IMG/VR virus record: IMGVR_UViG_3300034980_000365
Span: 1-52,307 of that record
Direction: 5' to 3' (one strand)
Origin: a virus
Lineage: Duplodnaviria > Caudoviricetes
DNA length: 52,307 bases
The notes beneath the pieces are model-generated. The model searched no databases. It was not told where the DNA came from and saw nothing but the letters and a program-made list of their open reading frames with translations. Shown in pieces: positions 4,151 to 48,001 of the stretch (position 1 is its first letter; each line of letters opens with the position of its first letter). The position numbers and the translations under genes are program-made.

Positions 4151-4536
4151 TTGTCTTCTTTATTATAGGGTAGTATGACAATTTTTATTTCGTTTAGTTC
4201 GCACCATTCTATTTTCTGCTTGTCTCTTTTTTTAGATTTGTAAAAATCAGCTTTTGTTTTGTGAAAGAAACTACAGAACTTATAATGCTGTTCACCATGT
4301 ACTTCTACTATGAGATATTCTTTTGGTATGAAAAAATCAGCATATAAAGAACCGGTGTTTACGGTGTTTGAACCGGGGAGAAAGACCTCTTCAAACCTTG
4401 GTTGATACGGAAAAATTTTAGAGAGCAATTTTCTAGCTCGAAGATGGTATTGAGACTTTTTTTGTCTTCTTGATCTAGATTTGCTTTTGGAGAAATTTAC
4501 TGTATAATCATTTCCATCTAAACCAATAACATTCAT
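4126..4536 (-). CDS. Vsr/DUF559-like endonuclease
   Basis: YADFFIP...IVEVHGEQHY...RDKQKIEWC...IKIVIL pattern. Confidence 0.75.
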   Translation of the reverse strand: MNVIGLDGNDYTVNFSKSKSRSRRQKKSQYHLRARKLLSKIFPYQPRFEEVFLPGSNTVNTGSLYADFFIPKEYLIVEVHGEQHYKFCSFFHKTKADFYKSKKRDKQKIEWCELNEIKIVILPYNKEDKWKDLVKE

Positions 4537-5561
4537 TCCAAAAACTCTTTCATTTCTTCTTGTAGAATTTTCATAACTTTAGGATTGGCCTCTAAATATT
4601 TATACAAATTAGCCTGACCTTGGAACTTGTATTTCTTTTCGTCCCATTCTTTATCATGTTTCTCCATGAATGCACAAGTATACCATGCTCCAGATTTATC
4701 AATAACATTAAAATCATCAGCCAACATGATTAGCTCTTGTACAAAGTCAAGGCCCTTGTTGTATCGAAAGTAACTAGTGGCATCTGTTCCACTTGCTCCT
4801 AAAGAAGAGGTGGCAATCTCCCATTCTATAATCTGCCCAATCTTTCTATCACTTTCCAACCAAGGTTTACTTCTTTTAACTTGAATAACCGTGTCAGTCT
4901 GGTATTGTATCTTGATACCGCCATCTGGTAAGTTCTTTTTACCAAAGCCGCTGGTGTTGGCAATCAGGTGTGATATCATAACCACAATAGTTTTGGACCT
5001 TGGAATAACCTGTCCCATACGTCGGGTGAAATCACCCATGATCTTAGGTAGCCCAGCACGACGCTCACCATTAACCATAGTTTGTAGGTCGCGTGACGGT
5101 ATTAGACTGGAGACCGAGTCAATAATAACCACAGCACCTTCGTTTTCCGGTTTTTGAATCAGAATCTCTATGATACTTAAAAATTCTTCTGCACTTAAAA
5201 TTCTATCTTCCGGAGCATGGACAATATCCATAGCCTCAAGATTGAGACCCATGATGCCCACTAGATTATGCGTCTTCAACCGCCCTTCGCCGTCCAGATA
5301 GATCACCTTCCTGCCCTCTTTTTGAGCATTGGCGGCGATTTGAAGGACCGTAGAGGTTTTGCCGGTTTTAGGCAGACCAATAACCGTCAACCAAGACCCT
5401 TCTTGAACTCCACCATTTAAAGCAAAATCTAAAGCAGGGCAGATTGGCAGAGTTTTTAACTTCTGTTTCTCTTCAAGTATTTCACTACCTTTTGATATAC
5501 ATTTTCCCAGTTCCTTTGTAAGCTTCTTAAGACCGTCTTCTTTTTCTTTAACCTTTGCCAT
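4533..5561 (-). CDS. recA: RecA/UvsX-like recombinase
   Basis: LDFALNGG, Walker A GLPKTGKT, YLDGE, Walker B IIDSV, KSGAWY and FQG C-terminal motifs. Confidence 0.92.
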   Translation of the reverse strand: MAKVKEKEDGLKKLTKELGKCISKGSEILEEKQKLKTLPICPALDFALNGGVQEGSWLTVIGLPKTGKTSTVLQIAANAQKEGRKVIYLDGEGRLKTHNLVGIMGLNLEAMDIVHAPEDRILSAEEFLSIIEILIQKPENEGAVVIIDSVSSLIPSRDLQTMVNGERRAGLPKIMGDFTRRMGQVIPRSKTIVVMISHLIANTSGFGKKNLPDGGIKIQYQTDTVIQVKRSKPWLESDRKIGQIIEWEIATSSLGASGTDATSYFRYNKGLDFVQELIMLADDFNVIDKSGAWYTCAFMEKHDKEWDEKKYKFQGQANLYKYLEANPKVMKILQEEMKEFLE

Positions 5562-25086: not shown

Positions 25087-25159
25087 TCCGGCAGGTGGGA
25101 ATCGAACCCACGACCAGCACTTTATAAGAATGCGACTCTAACCACTGAGCTACTGCCGG
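25087..25159 (-). tRNA. tRNA-Ile (anticodon UAU), CCA not encoded
   Basis: CCGGCAG/CTGCCGG acceptor stem, GCTC-AGTGGTTA-GAGT D arm, GCATT-CT TAT AA-AGTGC anticodon arm, GTGGG-TTCGATT-CCCAC T arm, discriminator A. Confidence 0.93.
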
Positions 25160-25255: not shown

Positions 25256-25813
25256 TTATTCTGCGGATGTCAAGACCAATTTCTGAATATTTTCCAATTC
25301 ATTTTTTTTCACAATGTAATTTACTGGTCCAGATTTTCCGGTTCTACTATTTTTTATTGGGTCGCTTGGCTTACGATTTTTTAATGTGGCTTTATCGACC
25401 CATCCCCACACACGAACTGTTCTTTTTGTGTCATAGCTACAGCAGATAAAGATATCAGACTTCTCTAATTTGTCTTTGTCTTTTTTTGAGCCGCAGGGGA
25501 CTTTGAGCCAAGGGTTATATTGTGCCGCAGGATGAGTGGCAACTTTAATGTCTGCCTTCATACCCATAATGATCACATCATATCCTTCATCGCCGTGATC
25601 GCTGTATATGGTTTCATCTAGCGGAATATCAAGATATTTACATATTGCAACTTCACCAGCTAAACCGTAAAAATGAGATTGTTCTGAACTATCAGTAAGT
25701 TTCCCATGTCTACCGCTACCAAATTTTGATTTCTTTGCATCTCTAGCTTTTGCTAAAGATTCTACTTTTCTTATATCTGTACTACTCAGTATTATTTCTG
25801 TAAATTTATGCAT
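25256..25813 (-). CDS. Putative PD-(D/E)xK nuclease-fold protein
   Basis: GLAGE...GDEGYD...ADIK spacing. Confidence 0.5.
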   Translation of the reverse strand: MHKFTEIILSSTDIRKVESLAKARDAKKSKFGSGRHGKLTDSSEQSHFYGLAGEVAICKYLDIPLDETIYSDHGDEGYDVIIMGMKADIKVATHPAAQYNPWLKVPCGSKKDKDKLEKSDIFICCSYDTKRTVRVWGWVDKATLKNRKPSDPIKNSRTGKSGPVNYIVKKNELENIQKLVLTSAE

Positions 25814-25889
25814 GATAAATAATCATTCCTATACAGAGTAAAATAAAACTAAACACCATAACTGTTTCTAGCTTTTCCTGAAAATTCAT
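25806..25889 (-). CDS. 27-aa membrane peptide (MNFQEKLETVMVFSFILLCIGMIIYHA)
   Basis: My translation; ATGA-coupled to the upstream ORF; single TM. Confidence 0.4.
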   Translation of the reverse strand: MNFQEKLETVMVFSFILLCIGMIIYHA

Positions 25890-26044
25890 TTAATGTCTAA
25901 AACCTTTCTAATATTTATCAAATCCTGACCATGTAATTTTTTAAGGTGGTTATATATTTTTTCACCTTCTTTTAATTTTATAATAGCCTTCTTATGTTTG
26001 ATGTTTTTATTTTCCCAAATAAAATATGAAACTGTGTAAGTCAT
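25886..26044 (-). CDS. Last cassette ORF, 52 aa (MTYTVSYFIWENK...)
   Basis: My translation; starts at the ATG of the 16-bp repeat at 26041. Confidence 0.55.
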   Translation of the reverse strand: MTYTVSYFIWENKNIKHKKAIIKLKEGEKIYNHLKKLHGQDLINIRKVLDIK

Positions 26045-26232
26045 TTATCAACTCCTTCAATCTCTATTTTATAAAGACCTTTTATCAAGTCCATATGCTT
26101 GCCTTCACGAATAAACCATTCTTCTGTGAGGTCTACAATGACCTCTGAAAGATCGTCAGCATAAAAAGGATGACCGGCGAACCAAGCTAGGCAATCTGCT
26201 GCTTTGTTTGAAATTTTAATTTTCTTACTCAT
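26041..26232 (-). CDS. Cassette ORF, hypothetical, ends EGVDK
   Basis: Bounded by two repeats. Confidence 0.7.
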   Translation of the reverse strand: MSKKIKISNKAADCLAWFAGHPFYADDLSEVIVDLTEEWFIREGKHMDLIKGLYKIEIEGVDK

Positions 26233-26420
26233 TTATCAACTCCTAAAAAATTTCTACCTGCTGTAGACCAATTTTCTATTCCCATGCAAATAACCTCGCC
26301 ACCGACCTGAATACCAATTATTCCGTCTTTGGTTACATGTATTGAGGGCGAATAAAAGTCTTCGTTGTCCTGCCTCCAAAGTTCTATATCACTATTGGCT
26401 TTAGGTTCGTCAGAACTCAT
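26229..26420 (-). CDS. Cassette ORF, hypothetical, ends LGVDK
   Basis: Bounded by two repeats. Confidence 0.7.
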   Translation of the reverse strand: MSSDEPKANSDIELWRQDNEDFYSPSIHVTKDGIIGIQVGGEVICMGIENWSTAGRNFLGVDK

Positions 26421-26893
26421 TTATCAACTCCTTCAAAGATATTACCCACCACTTCGTAGTGATACCAGTTTGGATCATGCAGGTTTGTTATCTCATAAGG
26501 TTCCATAATGTCTCCCTCTTTTAGATTAACATCATCTCCTGTGCTTTCAAGATAAAACCCCGGATATTTGTAAGTCCCGCCATCAAATTCTCCAGTGCCA
26601 TATTTTACAACAGCATGTACGATGTAGTCTTCCATGCTATCTTTTGGAAACGAGAGAATATCCCCCTCATAAATCTCAACACCGTTCTTGTCTTTGAGTC
26701 CAGTGTATTGCATTTTCTTAAATTGTCTACGGCAACCGTAAGAATCTTCAATTAAACTTATTTCAAGACTACCATCCCCGTAATGGATAATCTCTGACTG
26801 CTCAAACCATAGTCCCGCCAAGTCTGCTAACTCTTTGGGTGAATACATCTTCTTTTCTTTTTCATCCCATCCCCGAAATTTAATATTTCTCAC
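26417..26893 (-). CDS. YopX-family protein
   Basis: MRNIKFRGWD, MQYTGLKDKNGVEIYEGDI, EVVGNIFE. Confidence 0.9.
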   Translation of the reverse strand: MRNIKFRGWDEKEKKMYSPKELADLAGLWFEQSEIIHYGDGSLEISLIEDSYGCRRQFKKMQYTGLKDKNGVEIYEGDILSFPKDSMEDYIVHAVVKYGTGEFDGGTYKYPGFYLESTGDDVNLKEGDIMEPYEITNLHDPNWYHYEVVGNIFEGVDK

Positions 26894-26928
26894 TTGTTAA
26901 CTCCTAAGAAAAGTCAAGTTTAACAGTT

Positions 26929-27150
26929 TCAATGGTTTCCTTTTTCGTCACCATTGTGAATTGTGGAGTGTCCGTCAATATTCACATACCACATAATTTC
27001 ATCTTCTGTTAGATACATATCAATCGCTAAATGCTGAAACAGATATTTCCGATTTCCCAAATTCACTTCACCAATATACTGGAATCTACCTTTAATGAAT
27101 GGGGTCTTTACAAGATAGAATGTGTTCTCTTTTAGTTCTTCAGAACTCAT
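26929..27150 (-). CDS. Cassette ORF, paralogue of 27912-28154
   Basis: Shared ELKEN...IKGRFQY.G...KYLFQ...D.YLTE. Confidence 0.75.
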   Translation of the reverse strand: MSSEELKENTFYLVKTPFIKGRFQYIGEVNLGNRKYLFQHLAIDMYLTEDEIMWYVNIDGHSTIHNGDEKGNH

Positions 27151-27512
27151 TTATCAACTCCTTCAAAGATATTACCGATTACTTCGTAATCGCTATTGGG
27201 GTTCATGGTTTCTGGATCAAAATTAAATCTAAAGCCACAAGCGTTTCCCCAGTAAAAATCTTGATCAATGTCGTCATCCCAACTCACAATCGCTGTAGAG
27301 AATCCAGACCTGACAATATCACCCTCATAAATCTCAACATCATTCTTGTCTTTAAGTCCGGTGTATTGCTGACGTTGCCAAAAGTATTTTGGAGGAATGG
27401 TGGCATAAAATTCATTTCGCATTACGGAACATAGGACTTCTTTGTCTTTAGTAATATCTTCCCAGTTCCACATGTTTGAACCATCCCATGCCCTAAACTT
27501 AATCTCTCTCAT
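27147..27512 (-). CDS. YopX-family protein
   Basis: MREIKFRAWD, QYTGLKDKNDVEIYEGDI, EVIGNIFE. Confidence 0.9.
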   Translation of the reverse strand: MREIKFRAWDGSNMWNWEDITKDKEVLCSVMRNEFYATIPPKYFWQRQQYTGLKDKNDVEIYEGDIVRSGFSTAIVSWDDDIDQDFYWGNACGFRFNFDPETMNPNSDYEVIGNIFEGVDK

Positions 27513-27901
27513 TTATCAACTCCTTCAAAGATGTTCCCTATAATCTTAGCAGTAGAAAGCGATTTTCGTGTCATCAGCCATTTAACATTGTGTTCGGGCT
27601 GTACAAAATGATAGCCGTTTTCAACCCACTGAATCTCTCCATTCATTTCGGGGTACATCCATCCCTGTTCCCATAGAAGGATATCCCCCTCATAAATCTC
27701 CACCCCGTTCTTATCTTTAAGTCCAGTGTATTGCATTTTCTTAAATTGTCTACGAACACCATAAGAATCTTCAATCAGACTTATTTCCAGGCTTCCGTCT
27801 TCTGCCTGTTCAAACCATAGTCCCGGCAAGTCCGCCAATTCAACGGGAGGATACATCTTTTTCTCTTTTTCGTCCCATCCTCTAAACTTAATCTCTCTCA
27901 T
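27509..27901 (-). CDS. YopX-family protein
   Basis: MREIKFRGWD, MQYTGLKDKNGVEIYEGDI, IIGNIFE. Confidence 0.9.
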   Translation of the reverse strand: MREIKFRGWDEKEKKMYPPVELADLPGLWFEQAEDGSLEISLIEDSYGVRRQFKKMQYTGLKDKNGVEIYEGDILLWEQGWMYPEMNGEIQWVENGYHFVQPEHNVKWLMTRKSLSTAKIIGNIFEGVDK

Positions 27902-27911
27902 TTATCAACTC

Positions 27912-28154
27912 CTAATATCCCATATCTAAATCTTGTGCTTGTTTTGTAAGTTCATCAAGTGCTTTTTCTCGTTTATCAACTCCTACACAAGCTACTAATT
28001 CGTTTTCTGTTAAATATAGATCAGTGGCGAAACATTGAAAAAGATATTTCTTGACGCCCTGAAAATCTACTTGCCCAGTGTATTGGAATCTTCCTTTTAT
28101 GTAATTGGTCTCAATACTATACCAGATGTTTTCTTTTAGTTCGTCAGAATTCAT
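27912..28154 (-). CDS. Cassette ORF, paralogue of 26929-27150, reads through a mutated repeat
   Basis: Internal GVDK followed by CGA instead of TGA. Confidence 0.75.
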   Translation of the reverse strand: MNSDELKENIWYSIETNYIKGRFQYTGQVDFQGVKKYLFQCFATDLYLTENELVACVGVDKREKALDELTKQAQDLDMGY

Positions 28155-28157
28155 TTA

Positions 28158-28817
28158 TCAACTCCTTAACTTTTCACAATATAGAATTTGCGCAATTTTC
28201 ATTTCTTCTTCTGTGTCTATATCAATATACGGACCTTTAGCAAGCCACATGGTTGAGTTAGGTGAATAAGTATAGTGATATTTACTATAGACTGCTGGAG
28301 TAGAAACCCCCATTGGGGTGACGTAGTAACACTTGGGTAAGTCCTGTGACGGCACATGCCAACTTCCCGGCCCAAAATTCATCCCCTGCATATTTTCATC
28401 TACCAAGTAATCAGCAAATTCATATACGGGGACCACTGATTCATACTGCCCTAATTTTTCTTCCGCAAAAGATAAAAAATCTTGGATGTCGTTGTACAAC
28501 CAAAAGAGTGGTGTAATACACTGCCATAAGCAAATAGGCTCATCAGGTCCAAAAGACCTAATTAAACTTTCAGATAAATCAATTACTACCTCACTCCAAT
28601 TATTTGAAGTATTATTGAGAGGTATATGATTTACGCCGTACCTTTTTATTAATTGATCAGTTTGCGTACCATCAACACAAACTAGACTTACGTGATGACC
28701 GTGTTTTAGAAAGTTTTCAACCGTTATGTCCAGTAGAGATTTACCATCAAAGAATTCCCTGACGTTCTTTTTGTGGCATCTGGAGGAATCAAATTTAAAC
28801 GGTATTATTACCTTCAT
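28158..28817 (-). CDS. CMP-nonulosonate synthetase-like (NeuA/KdsB family) cytidylyltransferase
   Basis: IIP...SSRCHKKN..FFDGKSLL, QCITPL, SQDLP, IDIDTEEE. Confidence 0.8.
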   Translation of the reverse strand: MKVIIPFKFDSSRCHKKNVREFFDGKSLLDITVENFLKHGHHVSLVCVDGTQTDQLIKRYGVNHIPLNNTSNNWSEVVIDLSESLIRSFGPDEPICLWQCITPLFWLYNDIQDFLSFAEEKLGQYESVVPVYEFADYLVDENMQGMNFGPGSWHVPSQDLPKCYYVTPMGVSTPAVYSKYHYTYSPNSTMWLAKGPYIDIDTEEEMKIAQILYCEKLRS

Positions 28818-29502
28818 CTAATTCCAGTATATTTATTTTATTTTGTTTGTGAAGTTTATTTAACCAAATTATATCTGTGTTAATCTCATGAGGTAATGCC
28901 ACTAGCTTTTTTTCTTTATTAGTATCCCAATAATGATAAAATTCTTCTTGCATACCATTTGACGGATGCCCAAATCCGGCTATATTGACTCTACCATAAA
29001 ACTTTCTGTAATAATCTACAACTAATGATCCATTTGTGGGAACCGTACTGAAGCCTCTTTTTTTCCATTTTTTCATACCATTAAACGAATCAATAAAATG
29101 AATTATGATACTATCATCAATAAATGGACTAATGTCTCTATAAAAGCGATGAAAGTCATAATTCAAACCAAGGAAAAGTTTAGACTTTGATAATACAACT
29201 GCGCCCTGACCTTCTTCGTTTCTTAATCTTTCAAAACAATCTTTTTTTACAATTGATTTATCTAAAGTTTTACGGTTTTCTATTTTCTTATCACAAATAG
29301 CACATACGCTGCTTCTTATAACCCATCCAGCAATCTGCCAATTTGCTATGAAAGAATGGGTTACTCTTGAACCTACATCTTTTTCAAATCCAGAAATCTG
29401 GGGCTGATTGATTCTTACAATTATATCGTGACTGTCTATCTTTTCCCCAAGACCTTTACCTGTGAGACTGTCAGCACTTCCCACAATACAGATCCTGCTC
29501 AT
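28795..29502 (-). CDS. GT29 sialyltransferase-like protein
   Basis: Sialylmotif L (CIVGS...LGEKIDSHDIIVRIN...FEKDVGSR), S (PTNG...IAGF), III (HYW), VS-like (HEINTD). Confidence 0.82.
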   Translation of the reverse strand: MSRICIVGSADSLTGKGLGEKIDSHDIIVRINQPQISGFEKDVGSRVTHSFIANWQIAGWVIRSSVCAICDKKIENRKTLDKSIVKKDCFERLRNEEGQGAVVLSKSKLFLGLNYDFHRFYRDISPFIDDSIIIHFIDSFNGMKKWKKRGFSTVPTNGSLVVDYYRKFYGRVNIAGFGHPSNGMQEEFYHYWDTNKEKKLVALPHEINTDIIWLNKLHKQNKINILELDEGNNTV

Positions 29503-29505
29503 TTG

Positions 29506-29700
29506 TCAATTCCTACCAAGAAACTTTTTCTTAATAAACCAAAATAGTGTTCTAAAGATATTTCTGTATCTTACTTTACCGTCTTTTTCAACAAGACCAA
29601 AATGATCTAGAGAACAGTCTTCACATAAATATTCTTTGCAGATACGACACCGATAACTATCTTCATATGTTATCTGCTTACCACATTCACATTCTACCAC
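29506..29700 (-). CDS. Small Cys/His zinc-finger protein
   Basis: CECG...CRIC...CEDC...H. Confidence 0.6.
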   Translation of the reverse strand: MVECECGKQITYEDSYRCRICKEYLCEDCSLDHFGLVEKDGKVRYRNIFRTLFWFIKKKFLGRN

Positions 29701-32029: not shown

Positions 32030-32780
32030 TGTATTTGACGGAGAGGAACTTTTAGAAAAATCTATTTCTTCTATAAGAGATTCGGTTGACTTTATATCAG
32101 TTGTTTATCAAACTAAATCTAATTTTGGAAACAAATGCTCACCTGACCTAGAAGGTATTTTGTATGACTTGAGAGACAAAGGCGATGTGCAGGAATTAGT
32201 AAAATACATACCTAAACTCAATTTAAAACCACATAGTAATGAGTTGATAAAAAGAAATATAGGTTTAAATTTAGCAAAACAAAATTCATGCACGCACCAT
32301 ATGTCTTTAGATTGTGATGAGTTTTACATACATAAAGAATTTGAAAAAGCAAAACAAATCATATTAGATGAAGACATAGACTGCGCCATATGTGGTATTC
32401 AATCTTACTATAAAGAACCAACAATAATAATAGATCCACCAGACCCAACACTTGTTGCGATGATATATGAAATAAATAGTTATTCAGAATTTAAACTAAA
32501 TCAAGATCTTGGATATGATAAAATCGACCCCACAAGAAGAATAAAAAGTACGAAGGTCAAGAAATTTGAAAGAGAGGAGTTGTTGATGCATCACATGAGC
32601 TATATCAGAAAAGACATAAGATCAAAAGCTGAAAATTCTTCAGCAAGGTGTAATTTTGAAAATGAAATAGATATTTTTGTTGATTACTTTAATAACTATA
32701 AAGAAGGAGACGCGATGATCCTTGGATTACCGTGCTTATATTATAAAACTAAACAATCAAAAAATATATTCGGACTATAA
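32007..32780 (+). CDS. GT-A fold glycosyltransferase-like
   Basis: YNVFDGEELL, ELIKRNIG, SLDCDE (DxD), HHMSY. Confidence 0.75.
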   Translation: MKISASYNVFDGEELLEKSISSIRDSVDFISVVYQTKSNFGNKCSPDLEGILYDLRDKGDVQELVKYIPKLNLKPHSNELIKRNIGLNLAKQNSCTHHMSLDCDEFYIHKEFEKAKQIILDEDIDCAICGIQSYYKEPTIIIDPPDPTLVAMIYEINSYSEFKLNQDLGYDKIDPTRRIKSTKVKKFEREELLMHHMSYIRKDIRSKAENSSARCNFENEIDIFVDYFNNYKEGDAMILGLPCLYYKTKQSKNIFGL

Positions 32781-32781
32781 C

Positions 32782-33669
32782 ATGAAAATACTGTTTATTT
32801 CAGATTTTTCTTTGGATCATTCGCCTGGAGGCGCGCAGAGAAGTAATGACATCATAGTAAAAACCGGGGTTGAATTAAAGCATGATGTTCATAGTATGTA
32901 TCATGATAGCAACTTAAAGATTATCGATCTAATAAAACTTATTGGGGATCATAAATATGATTATATCATTTCTTCAAATTTAGAATTGTTATCAAGACAA
33001 GAAGGACTTATCGATCTACTATATATGATGCCGAATCATATTAGGTTAGAACATGATATGAACCTATATCTAGACGATGAATCAAGGTTTAAACTATTTT
33101 CTAATTGCCATAAGACGTTTTTTCTTACAGAGTATCACCATCAAAAGTTTCGTGACTTCTACGGTGACTACTTTCAAAATGTGGAAATTGTGGCCGATCC
33201 TATTGACATCTCTGTTTTCTATGATTTCGGTAAATACAGAGAGGATGTTACTCTATACACTGGATTTATGCATAATTTTAAAGGCACAAATGTATTTATA
33301 AACCACGTAAAGGAAAACCCAGGTAAAAAGTTTATAGTCGCGGGGTGGGGTCCGGATCATTTGATGAACCAGATAAAAGATTTAGAGAATGTGGAATATC
33401 TTGGGAAGATAGAGTATGAACAAATGCCCGAAGTTTACAACAGGGCGTCCTCTGTCTTTTATAAGCCTAATATGTATGAACCCTTTTGTCGGTCAGTTGG
33501 TGAGGCTATTCTCTGCGGTGTTCCAAATCTAGTTGTGAATGATATTATTGGCTGTGTTCATGAAGAATCTAGATTAGGATTTGATGAATTTAAGAGTGCG
33601 TGTAATAATGCTGCCGATAACTTTTGGGGGATTATAGAAAATGATTTCAATAGTATGCACCTATCATAA
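32782..33669 (+). CDS. GT4 glycosyltransferase
   Basis: GGAQ, KG, EPFCRSVGEA; start at ATG 32782. Confidence 0.82.
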   Translation: MKILFISDFSLDHSPGGAQRSNDIIVKTGVELKHDVHSMYHDSNLKIIDLIKLIGDHKYDYIISSNLELLSRQEGLIDLLYMMPNHIRLEHDMNLYLDDESRFKLFSNCHKTFFLTEYHHQKFRDFYGDYFQNVEIVADPIDISVFYDFGKYREDVTLYTGFMHNFKGTNVFINHVKENPGKKFIVAGWGPDHLMNQIKDLENVEYLGKIEYEQMPEVYNRASSVFYKPNMYEPFCRSVGEAILCGVPNLVVNDIIGCVHEESRLGFDEFKSACNNAADNFWGIIENDFNSMHLS

Positions 33670-34468
33670 TAGAAAAAGTCAGTTTATTACAACCCTCAAT
33701 ACTATTAAATTTCAGATAGAGAATAGTGATTTAGAAGATGTGGAAGTTATATGCGTAAATCACAATAGTAGTGAAGAAAATAATATAGATGATTTACAAA
33801 AAGACTTTAATTTTCTAAAAGTAATAAATTTAGATACAAATACTAAAAATCCATGTATACCATACAATGTTGGTTTTAGTAATGCTGTTGGTGATAAAAT
33901 CATAATTCAAAACGCTGAATGTTGTCATATCGGAAATATCATACAAAAAACTTCTGAACGCCTTAAGGAAGACAATTACTTATCATTTGCTTGTTTTTCT
34001 GCTGATCTTATGACATCAAATTTAATAAAATCTATAATAACATCTCGTAATGAAAGTTCAGTTGAGGTTATAAAAAATAAAGTCTACTCTTTACCCCAGA
34101 CAGGCCCAGGGTTTTTAAGTAACTCTTGGTATAACCACTCTAGATTTTCGCCCAGAAATTTGCATTTTACAACAGCCATAACAAAAAATAATTTAGACAA
34201 ACTTAAGGGCTTTGACGAGAGGTACGCTATTGGGATGGACTATGATGATGACGATTTCATCATGCGTGTTAATAGATTGAATCTAGAAATAGTCAATATA
34301 GACGATCCATTCTCTGTACATCTTCACCATTCCAGTTCGTATAATAATTTTATAATTGAGGGCAAAGCATATTCCCCGAATGACTTAAGAATTATAAACC
34401 TTCACGTATTTAATAAGGCGAAGGGTGAGTCATTAGTTACCGCTGAATGGAATCATTTCTATGGCTGA
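33641..34468 (+). CDS. GT2 glycosyltransferase with GT7-C-like motif
   Basis: ISIVCTYHNR, YNVG, GFDERYAIGMDYDDDDF, HLHH. Confidence 0.82.
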   Translation: MISIVCTYHNRKSQFITTLNTIKFQIENSDLEDVEVICVNHNSSEENNIDDLQKDFNFLKVINLDTNTKNPCIPYNVGFSNAVGDKIIIQNAECCHIGNIIQKTSERLKEDNYLSFACFSADLMTSNLIKSIITSRNESSVEVIKNKVYSLPQTGPGFLSNSWYNHSRFSPRNLHFTTAITKNNLDKLKGFDERYAIGMDYDDDDFIMRVNRLNLEIVNIDDPFSVHLHHSSSYNNFIIEGKAYSPNDLRIINLHVFNKAKGESLVTAEWNHFYG

Positions 34469-35318
34469 TATACCTAAAAACTTTAATGTGTTCTGGGGTG
34501 GCGGAACATTATCTTTTATGAATCTTTTGACTGTTATAAGTTTTCATGAACATAATCCAGATTGGAAAATAAATCTTTTTAGACCAAAAGTATTAAAAAG
34601 TTTTTCATCAGTATTGTGGACAACCAAAGAACAGTCTCATAAGCTAGAATGTAAAGATTATTTTAATGAGTTAGTAAATTTAGATTTTGTGGATGAAATA
34701 GAATTAGACTATGATTTTTTAAGTTATAGTTATCATCATCCAGTAATAAAGTCAGACATGGCGCGGTATAAGATAATGAGTACATATGGAGGGCTATGGT
34801 CTGATTTTGATATAATTTATTTAAATTCAGTAGATAAACTAATAAAAACCAACGACAAATGTAATTTGTTTGTTAGTTATAGTTCTTGTCGGGAAAAATA
34901 TCACAGTATAGGATTCTATATAGCCACTAAGGATAACCCATTTTTTTTAAATTTAAGTGCCGCAGTAGAAACCTATAAAGACGCAAAGGCTACAGACTAC
35001 CAGTATTTTGGCAGATTGTTTGTTGAGAGCTTTTTTAGAAACTTTGAATCCTTAAGTTTACTCGAAGGCTGTATTGCATATAATTTAAGTAGTGATATAG
35101 TCTATCCAATCAAGTATAACGATTTGTCAAAAATTACAAGTGTAGATTACGAATTAGTAAAAGAAGATAGTTTAACCGAAGACACTGTAGGAATACATTG
35201 GTTTAATGGCGGCAATTCTGTTAGGCGAAAGATTGACGAGATAGATAAAGAATATAAATCAGATAAAACCTTAATGGGATATTGTTACAATAAGTATGAA
35301 GAATATATTAACAATTAG
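34461..35318 (+). CDS. GT32-like DxD glycosyltransferase
   Basis: IPKNFNVFW, KSDMARY, GGLWSDFD, GIHW. Confidence 0.82.
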   Translation: MADIPKNFNVFWGGGTLSFMNLLTVISFHEHNPDWKINLFRPKVLKSFSSVLWTTKEQSHKLECKDYFNELVNLDFVDEIELDYDFLSYSYHHPVIKSDMARYKIMSTYGGLWSDFDIIYLNSVDKLIKTNDKCNLFVSYSSCREKYHSIGFYIATKDNPFFLNLSAAVETYKDAKATDYQYFGRLFVESFFRNFESLSLLEGCIAYNLSSDIVYPIKYNDLSKITSVDYELVKEDSLTEDTVGIHWFNGGNSVRRKIDEIDKEYKSDKTLMGYCYNKYEEYINN

Positions 35319-36372
35319 TGGAATTAGACCTGACTTCATAAGAATGTCGGAGGTCTTTCGTCGATTAGATGAATGCTCCAATATAGATCATCAATTGATA
35401 CATACGGGTCAGCATTTTGATAAGATGCTATCCGATATATTCTTTGACGAATTAGATATTAGATCTCCAGATTTTAATTTAGAGATAGGTGGTCCCGGCA
35501 AGGAGCATTTTCACCAAAACGCGGAGTTGACTGTCAAACTTATAGAGCTTATAAGAAAACAAAATCTAGATCCTGATTTAATTTTATTCTTGGGTGACTC
35601 TAATTCTGTTTTGGTTGCGCCATCCTTAGCCAAAGAAGGGTATAAGGTTGGTCATATTGAAGCTGGTATGAGATCATACGATAGGAGGATGCTAGAAGAA
35701 ATAAATAGGACGGTTTGTGATCATTCTAGCGAACTATTGTTTACATATCATGATGATTATACGGAGAATTTAGTTCGTGAAGGTATACCAAGACACAAGA
35801 TATATAATGTCGGGAACACAATAGTTGAAGTTGCAAATAAGTTTAAGGAAGATATTACCAAGATAGAGAAAAAAAGAGACCACATACTGCTGGATATTCA
35901 TAGACCTGAAAATTTTAAATGCCCAAAAAGACTACAGAGAATATTTGATATTGTAAACTATCTAAGTAGAAGTTATTCAATACCATGTATTTCTTTAAGG
36001 TTTCCACGAACTTATGATTTTATATCCAAATTTGGTATAAATACACACTCTATTGAACCAGTAGAGCTTATGTCATATAAAACATATCTACAGACAGTAT
36101 ATGATTGTAAGTTTATAATTTCTGACTCAGGAACCGCTCAAGAAGAACCCGCCTTATTTAAAATACCTGTTTTAGTTCCAAGAGATTTTACTGAAAGACC
36201 TTTATCATATCATACATTTTGTTCAAGGAAGCTGTGTTTGGATAGTGCTAGTATGTCTAATGATACAATTGATTATCTAGATACTGCGGAACAAAAAATG
36301 AACCCTAAATGGTTAGGGGTTGGTGATACATCGGACAAAATAATATCTATACTGGACAATAAACTTAAATGA
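35296..36372 (+). CDS. wecB: UDP-GlcNAc 2-epimerase (non-hydrolysing type)
   Basis: GIRPDFI, HTGQH, LGD.NS, HIEAGMRS, EEINR, HRPEN, DSGTAQEE. Confidence 0.9.
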   Translation: MKNILTISGIRPDFIRMSEVFRRLDECSNIDHQLIHTGQHFDKMLSDIFFDELDIRSPDFNLEIGGPGKEHFHQNAELTVKLIELIRKQNLDPDLILFLGDSNSVLVAPSLAKEGYKVGHIEAGMRSYDRRMLEEINRTVCDHSSELLFTYHDDYTENLVREGIPRHKIYNVGNTIVEVANKFKEDITKIEKKRDHILLDIHRPENFKCPKRLQRIFDIVNYLSRSYSIPCISLRFPRTYDFISKFGINTHSIEPVELMSYKTYLQTVYDCKFIISDSGTAQEEPALFKIPVLVPRDFTERPLSYHTFCSRKLCLDSASMSNDTIDYLDTAEQKMNPKWLGVGDTSDKIISILDNKLK

Positions 36373-37130
36373 CTCAAAAATCTATTAAAATAGTAGTGCC
36401 TGTATATAATTGTGAAAAGTGGATTTCTAAAACCATAACCAGTATAAAATCGCAAACACATGAAGATTTTGAATGTTGCATTATAAACGACATGTCTACA
36501 GATAATACGGCAGATGTAATACAAGATTCTATTGATCTTGATAGAAGATTTAAATTTATAGATAATACAGAAAAGAAATATGCATTGAAAAATATATATG
36601 ATGGCATTAAATTTATAAGTAGTAATGACGAAGATATTTTAACAACGGTTGATGGTGATGATTGGTTGGCTCACGATCATGTTTTGGAAACTGTATATAA
36701 TGTCTACGAATCTACCAGTTGTTTGATAACATATGGCAATTTTTGTGAATATCCCTCTCAAAAAAAACACTTGGCATTCTCTACACCATATGATCAAGAT
36801 ATTATAGATAATAACACCTTCCGGAATACAGAATGGAAAGCTTCTCATTTGAGAACTTTTAAAAAGAAATTATGGGATAGAATAGATGTAGACGACCTTA
36901 TTAATCCAAAAACAAATGAATTTTATGAAGTGGCTTGGGACTTAGCTTTTATGTATCCCATGTTGGAAATGGCAGGTAATAGAAGTGAAAATATAAGTGA
37001 AGTTTTATACATATATAATAAAGAAAATCCTTTAAGTGATATGTACATAAAAACACAAGAACAAATTTCTATTGCCGATGATATAAGAAATAAAAATAAA
37101 TATTCAAAGGTAGATTTTGATGATAAGTAA
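36369..37130 (+). CDS. GT2 glycosyltransferase
   Basis: VVPVYN, INDMSTD, VDGDD, SHLRTF. Confidence 0.88.
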   Translation: MTQKSIKIVVPVYNCEKWISKTITSIKSQTHEDFECCIINDMSTDNTADVIQDSIDLDRRFKFIDNTEKKYALKNIYDGIKFISSNDEDILTTVDGDDWLAHDHVLETVYNVYESTSCLITYGNFCEYPSQKKHLAFSTPYDQDIIDNNTFRNTEWKASHLRTFKKKLWDRIDVDDLINPKTNEFYEVAWDLAFMYPMLEMAGNRSENISEVLYIYNKENPLSDMYIKTQEQISIADDIRNKNKYSKVDFDDK

Positions 37131-38358
37131 ATTGTTTAAATGGAATAGATTTGATTTACCAGCCAAATATCTATATGCTAAATTTAGACAAAATAAGATT
37201 AATTCTGATTTTGGTTTAGAAATATATAAAGAACATTTGAAGTTATGGAACGGATTTAAGGAATTTGATAACCCAAATAAAAATACATTTGAAGCTTTTA
37301 AGTTGGATTTTGATAATTTAATTGATGATATTAATTCTTTTGGATTTGATGGTGATAAGTCTAAAATTGTAATAGATGAAGATGGTTATTTAGTGAATGG
37401 TGCGCATAGAACTGTAGCTTGTGTGGTTAATAATGAAGAGGGCGTATTTCAAGTGGGGGGCGTTGGTCAAAAAGTGTGTGATCATAATATGTTTAGAAAT
37501 ATGGGCCTATCAGAATTTTATATGGACGCTATGGCATATGAACTTTCTAAATTGAATACAAATATGTTTGTAGTTTCTATATTCCCCAGAGCAGTTGGTT
37601 CTGAAAATGAAGTTGAGAATATTTTGGATGACTGTGGTAATATAGCTTACAAGAAAATTGTTAAGTTAAATCCCAATGGGGCTTTTAATTTGATGAGGCA
37701 AATGTATTATGGTGAAGAATGGGCAGGTGAGGCACATAATAATTGGCCGGGACTTAGAAGTAAAGCTTCTCTTTGTTTTACTAATGATAACCCTCTGAAA
37801 GTTTATTTAGTTGAATTTGATAATGTTGATATAGCACAAGAAACAAAATTAAAAATTAGAGATATATTTAAAATACAAAATCATTCAGTACATATTAATG
37901 ATACACACGAAGAAACTATTAGATTAGCTAGAGTTTTATTAAATGATAATAGTATTCATTTTATGAATAATTCTGATTCACCCCCATATCAAAGTTTTCA
38001 AGAACAATTAAATTATTTTAAGAATTGGATTATACAAAATGGGTTAGATATTGAAGATTATTGTGTCTCTGCTAGTTCTATATTATCTATGTATGGTCTT
38101 AGAGAGGGTTATGATTTAGATTATCTTCATAATGGTTTAGTGATACAAGGTCATAATATGGTTCATAGCCATAATGAATATGGAATTGATAAATACCATA
38201 CGCATAGAGATGATATAATTTATAATCCGTCCAATCATTTTTATTATGATGATATTAAATTCGCATCATTAGATGTTGTCAAACAACTAAAACAAAAAAG
38301 AATGGAACAAAAAGATATTAAAGATATAAAATTAATTGATGGGGTAATTAATGTTTGA
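37117..38358 (+). CDS. Multidomain protein: ParB/Srx-like N-terminus and nucleotidyltransferase-like C-terminus
   Basis: LVNGAHRT; HSVHIND; SSILSMYGLREGYDLD. Confidence 0.5.
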   Translation: MMISKLFKWNRFDLPAKYLYAKFRQNKINSDFGLEIYKEHLKLWNGFKEFDNPNKNTFEAFKLDFDNLIDDINSFGFDGDKSKIVIDEDGYLVNGAHRTVACVVNNEEGVFQVGGVGQKVCDHNMFRNMGLSEFYMDAMAYELSKLNTNMFVVSIFPRAVGSENEVENILDDCGNIAYKKIVKLNPNGAFNLMRQMYYGEEWAGEAHNNWPGLRSKASLCFTNDNPLKVYLVEFDNVDIAQETKLKIRDIFKIQNHSVHINDTHEETIRLARVLLNDNSIHFMNNSDSPPYQSFQEQLNYFKNWIIQNGLDIEDYCVSASSILSMYGLREGYDLDYLHNGLVIQGHNMVHSHNEYGIDKYHTHRDDIIYNPSNHFYYDDIKFASLDVVKQLKQKRMEQKDIKDIKLIDGVINV

Positions 38359-39118
38359 TTTAAGTAAATATGTAACTATTTCTATGACGACTCACATATT
38401 ACCATCGACTGATATAATAGAGGAATGCATTGCATCTATTCGGGATAAATTTATAGGCATAGATGATTGTAAATTTGTAATTTATTGTGATAGTAGAATA
38501 GTTGACTCAACTAAAATATCATATGTAGAAAATTTAAATAAGTTAGAAAATGTAATAGTAGAAGACATATCTCACAGTGGTTTACAATCAAATTATATTA
38601 AAGGAATAGTTGATTCTTCTACACCTTTTGTATTTTGTTGTGAACACGATTGGATTTTTCTCAGAGAAATTGATTTATCTAAACTCATAAAAACTATGTT
38701 GGAGTATGATTTTATAAATTTTGTTAGATTTAATAAAAGAGATAATAAATATGCGCATATAAATAATCCCGAAGCAGGCGATACTTATTTTTGGGAAACT
38801 TATATAGAAGATGAACCCGATGTTAAAGAACAACAACTTATGAAAACTGATGCTATTGCTACCCACCCACATATAATAAGGGTTAGTAAATTTATGAATG
38901 ATTGGTTTGATATAGCAAGTAAACCAGGGCCGATGACTGGACAAGTAGAAGTCAATCTATATAATAGATATACAAGTATTATAAAACGAGATGGTTTTAC
39001 AAAAGCACAGAAAGATTGGGGTATCTACAATTATGGTGGTAGAAATGAAAAGAAAATAATAACACACTTAGATGGAAGTAATCATTATGTAGTAAATACA
39101 TTAGACAAGGAGTTATAA
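38351..39118 (+). CDS. GT-A fold glycosyltransferase-like
   Basis: TPFVFCCEHDW, VRFNKR, HLDG. Confidence 0.6.
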   Translation: MFDLSKYVTISMTTHILPSTDIIEECIASIRDKFIGIDDCKFVIYCDSRIVDSTKISYVENLNKLENVIVEDISHSGLQSNYIKGIVDSSTPFVFCCEHDWIFLREIDLSKLIKTMLEYDFINFVRFNKRDNKYAHINNPEAGDTYFWETYIEDEPDVKEQQLMKTDAIATHPHIIRVSKFMNDWFDIASKPGPMTGQVEVNLYNRYTSIIKRDGFTKAQKDWGIYNYGGRNEKKIITHLDGSNHYVVNTLDKEL

Positions 39119-39979
39119 ATGATTAAAATAGAAAATGGTAAAAAATATTTAGTAACTGGTGGTAGTGGATTTTTAGGTGAAGAATTAATTAAAAGAATTA
39201 TATCAAAAGGTGGTGAAGTTGTTACTATCTCAAGAGATGAAGGAAAGTTAATTAAGTTAAAACAGAAATATCCATCTATTGAAATATTAACAGGTGGTAT
39301 ATGTGATGAGTTTGATGTTCATCAGTCTATGAGTGGAGTTACTGGAATATTTCATTTAGCAGCATTTAAGCATGTTGGATTAGCAGAAACTCAATCAAGA
39401 GAATGTACTAAATCAAATGTTATAGGTTCTATTAATATTTTAGAACAAGCTGTTAATAATAATGTAGAGTTTGTATTAGGTATAAGCACTGACAAAGCTG
39501 CTCAAGTAGCAGGTGTATATGGTGCCACTAAATACATTATGGAAAAATTATTTCAACAATTTGAAAGAAATTATCCAAATACAATATTCAGAATAGTTAG
39601 ATATGGTAATGTTTTATACTCAACAGGTTCTGTTTTATGTAAATGGAAAAAACTTCTTGAAGAGGGAAAAGAAGTTGTTGTTACTGAACCAGAAGCTACA
39701 AGATATTTTTGGACAATAGAACAAGCTGTTGATTTGATAGAGCAGTGCATGTCAGAAGCTACTGATTCATATCCATTTGTACCAGAAATGAAGTCGATGA
39801 GTGTTAGAGATTTATTAACAGCTATGTCTGAAAAATATTTGTTAGAAGGAGCCGAACTTAAAATAAAAGAAATCGGTTTACAACCAGGTGAGAATTTACA
39901 TGAAAAAATATTAGAAGCCGGTAAGTATTCAAACGAAGTTGAAAGATTTACAATAGAAGAAATTAAGGGGATGATTTAA
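39119..39979 (+). CDS. NDP-sugar 4,6-dehydratase (PseB/CapD-like)
   Basis: TGGSGFLG, SRDEGK, AAFKHV, STDKA, YGATK, RYGNV..S.GSV, GE.LHE. Confidence 0.88.
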   Translation: MIKIENGKKYLVTGGSGFLGEELIKRIISKGGEVVTISRDEGKLIKLKQKYPSIEILTGGICDEFDVHQSMSGVTGIFHLAAFKHVGLAETQSRECTKSNVIGSINILEQAVNNNVEFVLGISTDKAAQVAGVYGATKYIMEKLFQQFERNYPNTIFRIVRYGNVLYSTGSVLCKWKKLLEEGKEVVVTEPEATRYFWTIEQAVDLIEQCMSEATDSYPFVPEMKSMSVRDLLTAMSEKYLLEGAELKIKEIGLQPGENLHEKILEAGKYSNEVERFTIEEIKGMI

Positions 39980-40701
39980 TGAATATTTTGATACCAATGG
40001 CTGGAGCGGGTTCAAGATTCCAAGAGCAAGGGTATGAGTTACCAAAACCACTAATTGATGTTTGTGGTAAACCAATGATTGAAAGAGTAATTGAATCTTT
40101 AAGTAGTGAAAAAATTGAAACTAATTTTATTTTTGTAGCACAACAAGAACATCTGGATATAGGATTGAGAGATTATTTACAAGATAAAGGTTCAATAATT
40201 ACAATTAATGAAATGACTGAAGGTGCAGCTTGCACTACATTGTTAGCACACGAGCTTATTGATAGTGATTATGAATTGGTTATTGCAAATTGTGACCAAT
40301 ATTTACAATGGAGTTTTTATGATTACATAACATATTCACGATTGTATGATGGATGTTTAGTTACATTTAATTCCACTAACCCACATCATAGTTATGTCAA
40401 AGTTAAAAAATCATTAGTAACCGAAGTAGCAGAAAAAATTGTAATATCGGACAAAGCGTCTGCTGGTATTTACTATTTTAAAAAAGGTAGTGAATATGTA
40501 AAATCTGCAAACCAAATGATTGACAAGGACATTAGAACAAATAATGAATTTTATATTTGTCCTGTTTATAATGAGTTACTTGATGGTGATAGTAAGGTAT
40601 CCACTTATGAGTGTGATGTTAATAACAAACATATGTTGGGAACACCTGAAGAGTTAAGAATATTTTTAGATAAAATTGAAGATGAAGAGGTTAAGATATG
40701 A
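39979..40701 (+). CDS. Sugar-phosphate nucleotidyltransferase
   Basis: IPMAGAGSRF...PKPLI, GAACT, ANCDQ, NNEFYI, LGTPEEL. Confidence 0.85.
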   Translation: MNILIPMAGAGSRFQEQGYELPKPLIDVCGKPMIERVIESLSSEKIETNFIFVAQQEHLDIGLRDYLQDKGSIITINEMTEGAACTTLLAHELIDSDYELVIANCDQYLQWSFYDYITYSRLYDGCLVTFNSTNPHHSYVKVKKSLVTEVAEKIVISDKASAGIYYFKKGSEYVKSANQMIDKDIRTNNEFYICPVYNELLDGDSKVSTYECDVNNKHMLGTPEELRIFLDKIEDEEVKI

Positions 40702-41363
40702 ATAAAAAAATATTAATTTTTGGTGGGGAAAGTGATATTGCTACAGCAGTCAAAGATATGAATTCTGATACTATTCAAATTCCATATAAAGAATGTGATG
40801 TTAGAGATTCTGAACAAATATCAAAATGGTTAAGAGAACATAAACCTGATGTTGTTGTTAATTGTGCTGGGGTATCAAATGTTCAATTGGTAAAAGATTC
40901 AAATATAGACAAGTGGATACAAGAGATTGATGTTAATTTAGTTGGTAGTTATAGAATAGCTAGAGAGTGTGTTCAATTAGGTATCAACACTATGATATTT
41001 ATAGCTTCGGTAGCTGGTAAGTATGGAAAACCAGAACACAGCGGCTATTGTGCTTCTAAAGGTGGAACTATATCATTGGTTCAATCTTTGGCTTTTGAGG
41101 GCTACGATGCCTATTCTATTAGTCCTGGTAGAGTGGACACCAAAATGAGAGAAATGGACTATCCAGGTGAAGACCCAAGAACAAGACTGACTACAGATGC
41201 AACAGCTTCGGTTATATTTGATTGCATTAATGGTAGATATGAACCAGGTGATAACATCATTTATCGCAAAAGAGGTTTTAGAACTTTAAGAAGAATAGAT
41301 AAAGGTCAGCCTTGGAAAAAATATTTAAATGTTCAACCATACGGAACACCGAAAGAAATATAA
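40698..41363 (+). CDS. SDR-family oxidoreductase
   Basis: VNCAG, IASVAG, YCASK, SPGRVDT. Confidence 0.88.
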   Translation: MNKKILIFGGESDIATAVKDMNSDTIQIPYKECDVRDSEQISKWLREHKPDVVVNCAGVSNVQLVKDSNIDKWIQEIDVNLVGSYRIARECVQLGINTMIFIASVAGKYGKPEHSGYCASKGGTISLVQSLAFEGYDAYSISPGRVDTKMREMDYPGEDPRTRLTTDATASVIFDCINGRYEPGDNIIYRKRGFRTLRRIDKGQPWKKYLNVQPYGTPKEI

Positions 41364-42004
41364 TGAAAATAGCTGTCTGTTTACAAGGATTATCAAGTGG
41401 TAAAAACCATATAGGTCATGAGGTTAAATTTACAAATTCTTACAAATATCTAAAACAAAATATTTTAGATAATAATTCTGTGGATATTTTTCTACACACT
41501 TGGAATGAAGATTTAAATACAATTGATGAAATAACAAATATTTATAAACCAATTTCCTCAATTTTTGAAAAGCAAATCATCTTTGATGAAAATACTAAAT
41601 TACATATTACAAAAAGTCGTTGGTATTCTCATATGAAGTCTGTTGAATTAAAACAACAGTATGAAAAAGAAAATAATATTATTTATGATTTTGTAGTAGT
41701 TACTAGGTTTGATAATTGTTTTTTTATACCATTTTCATTTTCGGAATATGATAGTAATTGTTTTTATTCTTCTAATTGGGATTACCCACATAATCTTATT
41801 GGATTTTTAGATTACTGGTTTTTAGCGGATTCAAAGACAATGGATAAATTTTCAAATCTATATGATAAAATTGATGATTATTTAACATATATAGAATTAT
41901 CTAGTCATGTGTTGTCTAAACATCATGCTAATAAATTAAATTTGATACAAAAATATATTTTCAACGAACATAGTGATTTTGGACTGGAAAGACAATTAAA
42001 ATGA
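41363..42004 (+). CDS. Hypothetical glycan-locus protein
   Basis: MKIAVCLQG, FLHTW, YDFVVVTRFD pattern. Confidence 0.6.
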   Translation: MKIAVCLQGLSSGKNHIGHEVKFTNSYKYLKQNILDNNSVDIFLHTWNEDLNTIDEITNIYKPISSIFEKQIIFDENTKLHITKSRWYSHMKSVELKQQYEKENNIIYDFVVVTRFDNCFFIPFSFSEYDSNCFYSSNWDYPHNLIGFLDYWFLADSKTMDKFSNLYDKIDDYLTYIELSSHVLSKHHANKLNLIQKYIFNEHSDFGLERQLK

Positions 42005-42447
42005 TATTAATAAGTCATAGAGGAAATTTAGAGGGTAGAAATCCAGAACAAGAAAATAATCCATTATATATTTATAATGCATTAAATAAAGGTTTTGAAG
42101 TAGAAATAGATGTCTGGTATATGAATAATAGATGGTATCTTGGACATGATTCACCTGAACATGAAATAACTCTAGACTACTTAAAAAATAATAAATTTTG
42201 GTGCCATGCTAAAAATATAGACTCTTTAAATAGGATGTTAAAAGAGGGTGGCATTCATTGTTTCTGGCATCAAGAAGACGATGTGACACTAACATCTAAC
42301 GGTTTTATGTGGACCTATCCAGGTAAACCATTAACTGATAAGTCTATTTGTGTTTTACCAGAGGAAAATAATCAAATTCCTAAAAAGGGTCTTGGAATTT
42401 GTAGCGATTGCGTTGTATACTATAAAGAGATACAAATAGGAGAATAA
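42001..42447 (+). CDS. GDPD/PLC-like phosphodiesterase
   Basis: ISHRGN, EN, VEIDVW, LGHD, HAKN. Confidence 0.75.
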   Translation: MILISHRGNLEGRNPEQENNPLYIYNALNKGFEVEIDVWYMNNRWYLGHDSPEHEITLDYLKNNKFWCHAKNIDSLNRMLKEGGIHCFWHQEDDVTLTSNGFMWTYPGKPLTDKSICVLPEENNQIPKKGLGICSDCVVYYKEIQIGE

Positions 42448-42449
42448 TC

Positions 42450-44085: not shown

Positions 44086-44507
44086 TGAAAAAGATATATT
44101 CAAAAGTTAAAACAGATTGTTTATTATTAACATTAAATAGAAAAGAACATATAAATACAAACAGAACAGATTTAAGTCCTGAAGAGGAATATTTACAATG
44201 TGCTACGAAAACACTTACAAAAGGCATGAAATTTAAACCTCATAGACATAATGAATTAATTAGAACTACTGACATAACGCAAGAAGCCTGGGTTTTCTTA
44301 AGTGGTAGAGTTAGAGCTAAATTTTATGATTTAGATGACTCTCTTATATTAGATACAGAATTAGGGGCTGGCGACTGTGCTATAGTTTTTAAAGCTGGAC
44401 ACGGATTTGAGGTACTGGAAGATGATACTATGATATATGAGTTTAAGACAGGTCCGTATTTTGGGCAAGAAGCTGATAAAAGTTTTATAGAGGATACAAA
44501 TGATTAA
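44085..44507 (+). CDS. Cupin (WbuC-like)
   Basis: PHRH, QEAW, GHGFEV, EFKTGPY. Confidence 0.78.
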   Translation: MKKIYSKVKTDCLLLTLNRKEHINTNRTDLSPEEEYLQCATKTLTKGMKFKPHRHNELIRTTDITQEAWVFLSGRVRAKFYDLDDSLILDTELGAGDCAIVFKAGHGFEVLEDDTMIYEFKTGPYFGQEADKSFIEDTND

Positions 44508-47000: not shown

Positions 47001-47001
47001 T

Positions 47002-48000: not shown

Positions 48001-48001
48001 T

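Follow-up and report, generated by a model that had tools for sequence, protein, structure and literature searches.

Small genes of a large uncultured marine phage are joined, in IMG/VR virus record IMGVR_UViG_3300034980_000365, by a repeated 16-nucleotide (nt) connector, AGGAGTTGATAAATGA, and the array that they form (25886-29514, minus strand) is probably a hyperplastic accessory-gene operon in which the connector acts as a short-homology crossover patch. The whole record of 52,307 bases was analysed and is referred to here as the window. In transcription order the array consists of a glycosyltransferase family 29 (GT29)-like gene, a cytidylyltransferase-like gene, A1, YopX, YopX, A2, YopX, B, C, and D (Table 1); the order from A1 onwards is the one given in an earlier reading of this DNA (the original prediction), which had proposed the repeat as a crossover site for single-gene cassettes. 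The repeat extends far past the window and is not a local oddity; as judged from sequence comparison, connector-bounded single genes occur near-unchanged, with different neighbours, in distantly related uncultured marine phages.

The connector is present in seven exact copies, all on the minus strand, and none of 100 dinucleotide-preserving shuffles of the window contains any exact match to the 16-mer. When up to 3 mismatches are allowed, 12 sites are found against a shuffle mean of 1.2 and a maximum of 4; 11 of them fall within 25911-29514 and the twelfth, at 3117, is probably due to chance. Four sites of the array are degenerate copies: the variants at 26890 and 27969 and the 13/16 relic at 25911 had been recognized in the original prediction together with the seven exact copies, and the one at 29499, with 2 mismatches, had been missed. 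No copy of the 16-mer is present in the rest of the record. An AGGAG placed 5–9 nt before ATG precedes only 10 open reading frames (ORFs) of at least 40 amino acids (aa) in the window, seven of which correspond to the array junctions; the remaining three strong ribosome sites, at 11614 (minus strand), 32575, and 39108 (both plus strand), have just AGGAGTT in common with the connector, and the site at 39108 is the 16-mer minus one base. The junctions of about 90 other predicted gene starts are heterogeneous. The 16-mer is therefore not the general junction form of this genome, because only array junctions carry it in full, and the earlier remark that no other junction of the window is so stereotyped holds. 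The sequence shared around the 16-mer ranges from 16 to 37 nt between copy pairs: the longest exact identity spans 37 base pairs (bp) (26410-26446 and 27140-27176; previously given as 36 bp), the second longest is the expected 32 bp (27493-27524 and 27882-27913), and the connectors at 26041 and 26229 have merely 16–20 nt in common with other copies.

Every exact copy is a gene border at which ATG lies 7 nt after AGGAG and the upstream stop overlaps the start as ATGA. The 16-mer is read in three frames of the upstream gene, as GVDK-TGA at five junctions of the window, as ..KLRS-TGA at 28151, and as ..GY-TAG overlapping AGGAG at 27898; the five proteins with a GVDK C-terminus, already counted in the original prediction, are the three YopX, B, and C. 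As a consequence of this use in three frames, the 16-mer is conserved as DNA and not as a peptide. The TGA, TAA, and TGA of the connector close two of the three incoming frames and the third is closed by the TAG overlapping AGGAG. In a set of 67 distinct junction contexts, drawn from 14 loci, the upstream gene stops at +13 (the GVDK frame) in 49, at +6 in 10, at a TAG at -1 in four, and at a TAA at -5 in one, with no long upstream ORF in the remaining three; ATG is kept in 64 of the 67. Information content is at background level directly beyond the edges of the 16-mer; these contexts were picked by similarity to the 16-mer, so that the sharp edges are informative and the height of the signal is not. 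The spacer TTGATAA, which is not needed for translation, shows no more variation than the ribosome site and the start codon.

The 16-mer is unpaired in all seven minimum-energy folds (z-scores from -2.14 to +0.82) and no hairpin or palindrome was found at the connector, either in the folds or as paired arms outside the 16-mer in the 67 contexts. Promoter-like sites in the 24.5-31.5 kb region number 19, where shuffles give 24.0 ± 5.0, and no such site is repeated at the connectors; the 67 contexts have no conserved -35 or -10 hexamers, and the terminator-like sites of the same region are four against 4.1 expected, none of them at a connector. The unpaired connector and the lack of an excess of promoter or terminator signals suggest that the array is a single operon whose genes are coupled in translation.

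When IMG/VR was scanned for the 16-mer, 99 stretches were obtained, and 16 of these have two or more connector-like sites, always on one strand; the largest clusters are those of loci L025 (18 sites in about 5 kb), L105 (11), and L061 (9). In whole-record scans of five relatives, all copies with at most 1 mismatch belong to a single same-strand cluster per record (9, 3, 3, 4, and 4 copies) and the reversed pattern used as a control gave 0 matches; in G004, a record that is 94% complete, the cluster occupies both ends of the record. In all four loci that have thyX in range, the array is close to that gene. A metagenome scan for two connectors 170–200 nt apart added 20 stretches from several projects. 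Altogether 130 loci were examined and 41 of them have at least two sites; their 165 cassette instances form 92 nucleotide clusters, 155 cassette proteins fall into 59 protein families, and the ORFs that follow a connector have a median length of 74 aa. The relatives differ in cassette content and order, and the copies are confined to one cluster per record and not common at ordinary junctions; the proposal of a crossover site thus passes the test set for it in the original prediction, which had named as refutations a fixed gene order among relatives and a 16-mer equally common at ordinary junctions.

The sequencing runs containing the region are marine and the window record is incomplete (21% by CheckV estimate). 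A blastn comparison of the array with 50,697 phage records matched only the conserved YopX box, over at most 4% of the query, and the helicase of the lineage has at most 29.5% identity to any phage record searched (tblastn); the lineage thus appears to be without a close relative among these records. A 24-nt pattern joining the YopX end and the connector gave 0 matches in bacterial genome contigs, hosts or prophages. In a separate contig with 35% G+C (L060, 6604-6983), two exact copies 364 nt apart precede two paralogous genes and are read in the frame ..KELIN...

The exchange of cassettes is seen against a diverged backbone: the nucleotide identity between the window and the fetched loci is 68–73% for thyX and 67.6% for RNR, and the RecA-family protein is 39–53% identical in aa to its homologues in four related records. 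Between its two connectors, cassette B matches L039 at all aligned positions, with unrelated sequence on either side (98.2% over 219 nt by blastn, the same figure against L039, L070, and L091), and cassette C is 94.6% identical to that of L040 from connector to connector, again with both flanks unrelated. The first 184 nt of A2 are 97% identical to L027, in a homology that begins at the connector and stops inside the gene near 26981. The C-terminal half of the third YopX gene, YopX3 (about 26420-26665), is 98% and 94.5% identical to L061 and L105, respectively, and the N-terminal half is not; this homology runs from the conserved YopX core box to the connector. Crossovers are hence located also at the YopX core box and inside genes, not at the 16-mer alone. 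YopX genes are themselves mosaics in which N- and C-halves of different paralogues are joined at the core box, as for YopX3 compared with L105; in L128 the N-half resembles the window and the C-half L025.

Among 21 short high-identity segments between arrays, 22 of the 39 scorable homology ends are within 20 nt of a connector-like site; under random placement the mean is 9.4 of 42 ends and the maximum 18 in 2000 randomisations. Loci belonging to the same contig or to near-identical lineages were collapsed by hand (L025=L119; L040=L117; L039=L108=L122; L070=L109=L126; L091=L110; L061/L105/L127; L118/L121), after which 12 cassette clusters are common to distinct lineages; in 10 of these, the neighbouring gene differs on one or both sides. 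The crossover-site proposal is supported by window cassettes that recur in diverged phages at 95–100% nucleotide identity between flanks that are unrelated, the homology ending inside the repeat.

Since the connector is identical ahead of unrelated genes, within the genome and across the lineage, it supplies a patch of exact homology of 16 nt, extended up to 37 nt by shared neighbouring codons. Each small gene of the array carries the same portable unit of ribosome site, start, and stop, and recombination there, whether the partners are co-infecting relatives or sister genomes, could swap, insert, delete or duplicate whole genes; every product would regain stop, ribosome site, and start and could be expressed at once. 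The recombination would be homology-driven rather than site-specific because crossovers occur also in the YopX box and inside genes and the shared length varies from 16 to 37 nt. The most likely enzyme would be the RecA-family protein of the phage; alternatively, the patches could be sites of template switching. We infer that the connector is a substrate of recombination rather than a mere survivor, and the acting enzyme, the single coupled transcript, and the roles of the cassettes are proposed on the same footing.

Cassette B has homologues in unrelated phages (50–63% aa identity) that are without connector, MSSDE start, and GVDK end, indicating that the B gene of this lineage has been fitted to the connector format. 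Otherwise unrelated protein families of the 41 array loci also share their first residues (MSSDE in 12 families, MTDKS in 5, and MSSEE in 3), and joints therefore form also a few codons behind the ATG; the connector would then have optional extensions of 5–6 codons that travel along with it.

Several points weigh against the role of the connector as a crossover patch. Sixteen exact bases are fewer than RecA-type recombination is commonly said to need and exact patches of 25–37 nt are available to just some copy pairs; 17 of the 39 homology ends are more than 20 nt from any connector. The connector is an excellent predicted translation signal, so that its conservation and the breakpoints at gene borders could reflect selection on expression. 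All the sequences are metagenomic assemblies and no recombination product is observed directly.

It is unlikely, on the whole of the evidence, that the connector is kept only as the best translation and coupling signal or as the binding site of a regulator, illegitimate exchange taking place anywhere and selection keeping the joints at gene borders. The unpaired state of the 16-mer in all folds is what is expected of an accessible ribosome site, the connector is the only strong AGGAG-N7-ATG form of the window, the homology ends lying elsewhere agree with exchange at any position, and the MSSDE prefix of 12 unrelated families implies joints downstream of the connector without evident homology. 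A regulator has a possible counterpart in the RegA family (PF01818) of phage translational regulators, for which G004 contains a sub-threshold match (G004:C1:78413-78691; 19.4 bits against a cut-off of 25, with one internal stop) that might be a lead for a candidate connector-binding factor; the RegB family (PF10715) gave no match, and its control was likewise without a match anywhere, so that this search is uninformative. However, illegitimate joints should leave heterogeneous intergenic sequence, whereas the observed joints are seamless, and for both B and C the homology stops within the repeat at either end; the dispensable spacer is as invariant as the signals around it, and the second crossover site, the YopX box, is also conserved, as expected if homology guides exchange.

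A dedicated site- or structure-specific enzyme, integron-like or encoded in an unsequenced part of the genome, that excises and inserts cassettes, perhaps as circles, is quite improbable. The very sharp edges of the conserved block, the one-directional arrays, the presence of a single array per genome, and the incompleteness of the window record would suit such an enzyme, and a weak joint from 28165 to 27147 (back 1019; depth 13.5, side 38) in sequencing run X1 could be a circle or a tandem duplicate; it was given no weight, and neither were the others of the 15 joints to which it belongs (sides 20–40 nt), which are possibly due to other organisms or to the 32–37 nt internal repeats. Nevertheless, the tyrosine recombinase family PF00589 was unmatched in five records (the window, G001, G002, G004, and G005; control matched in 14 of 14 genomes), which upholds and widens the earlier statement that the window has no integrase, and the serine recombinase family PF00239 was unmatched in the same five records, with a positive control; four of the five are fragments. 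The missing palindrome or hairpin, the crossovers in the YopX box and within genes, and a shared extent that varies, unlike a fixed cut site, also argue against it.

RecT and ERF were not found in the five records, with positive controls, and the only recombinase recognized in the window is a RecA-family protein with a homologue in all five; its action on the connectors would fit the data. Scans of 10 neighbouring ORFs did not reveal an SSB. The RecA-family gene of G004 (G004:C1:124182-126245) is matched in two pieces, query residues 5–72 and 66–341, in one 691-aa frame, which suggests an inserted element such as an intein.

That assemblers jumped between co-occurring phages at the 16–37 nt repeats, the cassette contexts being chimeras, is very improbable. 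Every dataset is an assembly, and run-level support comes from assembled contigs and unitigs (Logan; k=31). The unitigs of X1 break at connectors with extensions of at least 30 nt and at the YopX box; the breaks are due to the 32–37 nt internal repeats at k=31 and are hence no sign of population variants. The depth of the middle cassettes in X1 (about 1250–1490) is about double that of the flanks (590–870), which implies that identical cassettes are present in at least one further context in that sample. On the other side, one unbranched 31-mer unitig of X1, a run that may come from the source sample, covers 25325-26439 with no differences, from the flanking 185-aa gene across D, C, and B, and bridges at flank depth the connectors at 26041 and 26229, whose sequence shared with other copies is limited to 16–20 nt; the D-C-B block is therefore not an assembly artefact. 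B is also found in the order F9 - B - YopX, a second context shared by four contigs from different samples (L039, L070, L091, and L125), and L061, L105, and L127 agree with one another across their arrays. Uncovered parts in X2, X6, and X9 do not count as evidence. Plain tandem duplication and divergence in one lineage with no inter-genome exchange, suggested by an old duplication of the A and YopX pair in the window (repeat families D4, D6, and D7, about 1004–1023 nt apart with 76–88% identity), is contradicted by connectors that join 59 unrelated protein families and by cassettes 95–100% identical between genomes whose RecA is 39–53% identical.

The nearest described system is modular shuffling mediated by PeSL (promoter-early stem-loop) cassettes. 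In T4-type phages, a short repeated expression signal flanks small, mostly ORFan genes in hyperplastic regions; the PeSL consists of a sigma-70-type promoter and a stem-loop terminator between genes, so that each gene is its own transcription unit, and recombination between PeSLs explains insertions, deletions, and replacements between relatives without a site-specific recombinase, mini-circles having been shown (PMC2839356, PMC4122927). The connector is similar in that the repeats flank variable genes and insertions and deletions between relatives end in them, and it differs in having neither a sigma-70-like promoter nor a stem-loop terminator or attenuator, being a 16-nt translational repeat within one putative operon, where it overlaps the 3' end of the preceding gene.

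The likeness to integrons drawn in the original prediction stands as a loose analogy: single-gene promoterless cassettes, all in one direction, are bounded by a repeated site, and a given cassette recurs in more than one array and in varying order. In contrast to integrons, no IntI or tyrosine recombinase is matched in the five records, the connector, unpaired in all its folds, has no attC-like imperfect palindrome, and the crossover position is not fixed, as the distant homology ends indicate; moreover, the connector supplies translation signals and attC does not. Ordinary ATGA coupling shares the overlap of stop and start and the ribosome site within the upstream gene end, but its junctions vary from gene to gene, as the roughly 90 others in the window do, whereas here 16 nt are identical in three frames and in front of unrelated genes.

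The original lambdoid papers reportedly put forward the model of short conserved boundary sequences. A later account describes it as the exchange of modules by general recombination at short conserved gene-border sequences (PMC3029335), and homeologous recombination by phage recombinases is likewise described in another (PMC2327257). The present case differs from the boundary-sequence model in that one identical sequence is placed at dozens of borders across a lineage. In the literature searched, no phage array of ribosome-site/stop/start junctions was found. Recombination at conserved borders, of the PeSL type, is known; what is new is an exchange patch that is a 16-nt translational connector, usable in any frame and common to a diverged lineage.

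Table 1. Array features in order of transcription, and the RecA-family gene of the window.
Feature	Position	Strand	Evidence
Connector variant AGGAATTGACAAATGA, 2 mismatches, in front of GT29-like gene; upstream array edge	29499..29514	-	mismatch scan
Glycosyltransferase family 29 (sialyltransferase-like), first of a two-gene unit between connector-like sites	28795..29502	-	PF00777, 82.6 bits (cut-off 23)
Cytidylyltransferase-like gene, weak match; ends ..KLRS-TGA within connector, in a frame other than GVDK	28158..28817	-	PF02348, 19.7 bits, below 22.6 cut-off
Connector copy 1, exact	28151..28166	-	16-mer scan
A1, 80 aa, read-through fusion of A-family core and 19-codon tail of another gene family	27912..28154	-	comparison with L131, L061, L027
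Degenerate connector inside A1, 1 mismatch, ATG to ACG, start and stop both lost; fusion point	27969..27984	-	mismatch scan
Connector copy 2, exact; upstream stop TAG overlaps AGGAG	27898..27913	-	16-mer scan
YopX paralogue 1, 130 aa, C-terminus GNIFEGVDK	27509..27901	-	PF09643, 66.5 bits
Connector copy 3, exact; 32 bp identical with copy at 27898	27509..27524	-	16-mer scan
YopX paralogue 2, 121 aa	27147..27512	-	PF09643, 59.4 bits
Connector copy 4, exact; 37 bp identical with copy at 26417	27147..27162	-	16-mer scan
A2, 73 aa	26929..27150	-	cassette comparison with L027
Connector variant AGGAGTTAACAAGTGA, 3 mismatches, GTG start, in front of YopX3	26890..26905	-	mismatch scan
YopX paralogue 3 (YopX3), 158 aa, chimera	26417..26893	-	PF09643; comparison with L061/L105
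YopX core box QYTGLKDKNG.EIYEGD, conserved, second crossover site within genes	26655..26710; also 27312-27369, 27677-27734	-	repeat family D5, 90% identity
Connector copy 5, exact	26417..26432	-	16-mer scan
Cassette B, 63 aa	26229..26420	-	comparison with L039, L070, L091
Connector copy 6, exact	26229..26244	-	16-mer scan
Cassette C, 63 aa	26041..26232	-	comparison with L040
Connector copy 7, exact	26041..26056	-	16-mer scan
Cassette D, 52 aa, final array gene; reads through relic at 25911	25886..26044	-	ORF and mismatch scan
13/16 connector relic inside D, ATG to ATA	25911..25926	-	mismatch scan
RecA-family recombinase, only recognised recombinase	4533..5561	-	PF00154, 67.1 bits, and RecA C-terminal domain, 32.5 bits (cut-off 27 each)

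The array genes listed in Table 1 are in part recognizable. The three YopX cassettes match PF09643 with 66.1, 59.4, and 66.5 bits against a gathering cut-off of 22.4; for A1, A2, B, C, D, and the 185-aa neighbour there was no match in Pfam and PHROGs. The orthologue of A1 in L131 ends with GVDK-stop at an intact connector, and unrelated proteins of L061 and L027 have the tail of A1 as their C-terminus. The GT29-like and the weakly matched cytidylyltransferase-like genes form a two-gene unit (28158-29514, minus strand) between the connector-like sites at 29499 and 28151. On the plus strand, a large sugar and surface-polysaccharide cluster (32722-51489) includes a UDP-GlcNAc 2-epimerase, a DegT aminotransferase, a GDP-mannose 4,6-dehydratase, several epimerases, and GT1 and GT10-like transferases. 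Directly downstream of the array there is a tRNA-Ile with anticodon TAT (25087-25159, minus strand), and L061 has a comparable stretch (88% over 60 nt).

A wider reading, held tentatively, is that the connector is a lineage-wide standard plug and that at least 90 small genes constitute an exchangeable pool for phages whose core proteins are 39–53% identical, as an integrase-free functional counterpart of the integron, one sequence being both expression signal and site of exchange. In its boldest form this would involve active mobilisation of cassettes, via circles or connector-primed template switching, and not occasional passive recombination.

The mosaicism of phages is an old open question, in which recombination at conserved borders is set against random joining followed by selection, and conserved border sequences are, to our knowledge, rarely found. 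This lineage is a clean natural and bench-testable case for the border-sequence model, as recently exchanged genes end exactly in the connector. The connector also illustrates how new small genes can be sampled by a phage without any cost in expression, and it suggests a compact natural stop, ribosome-site, and start design that may work for any upstream frame.

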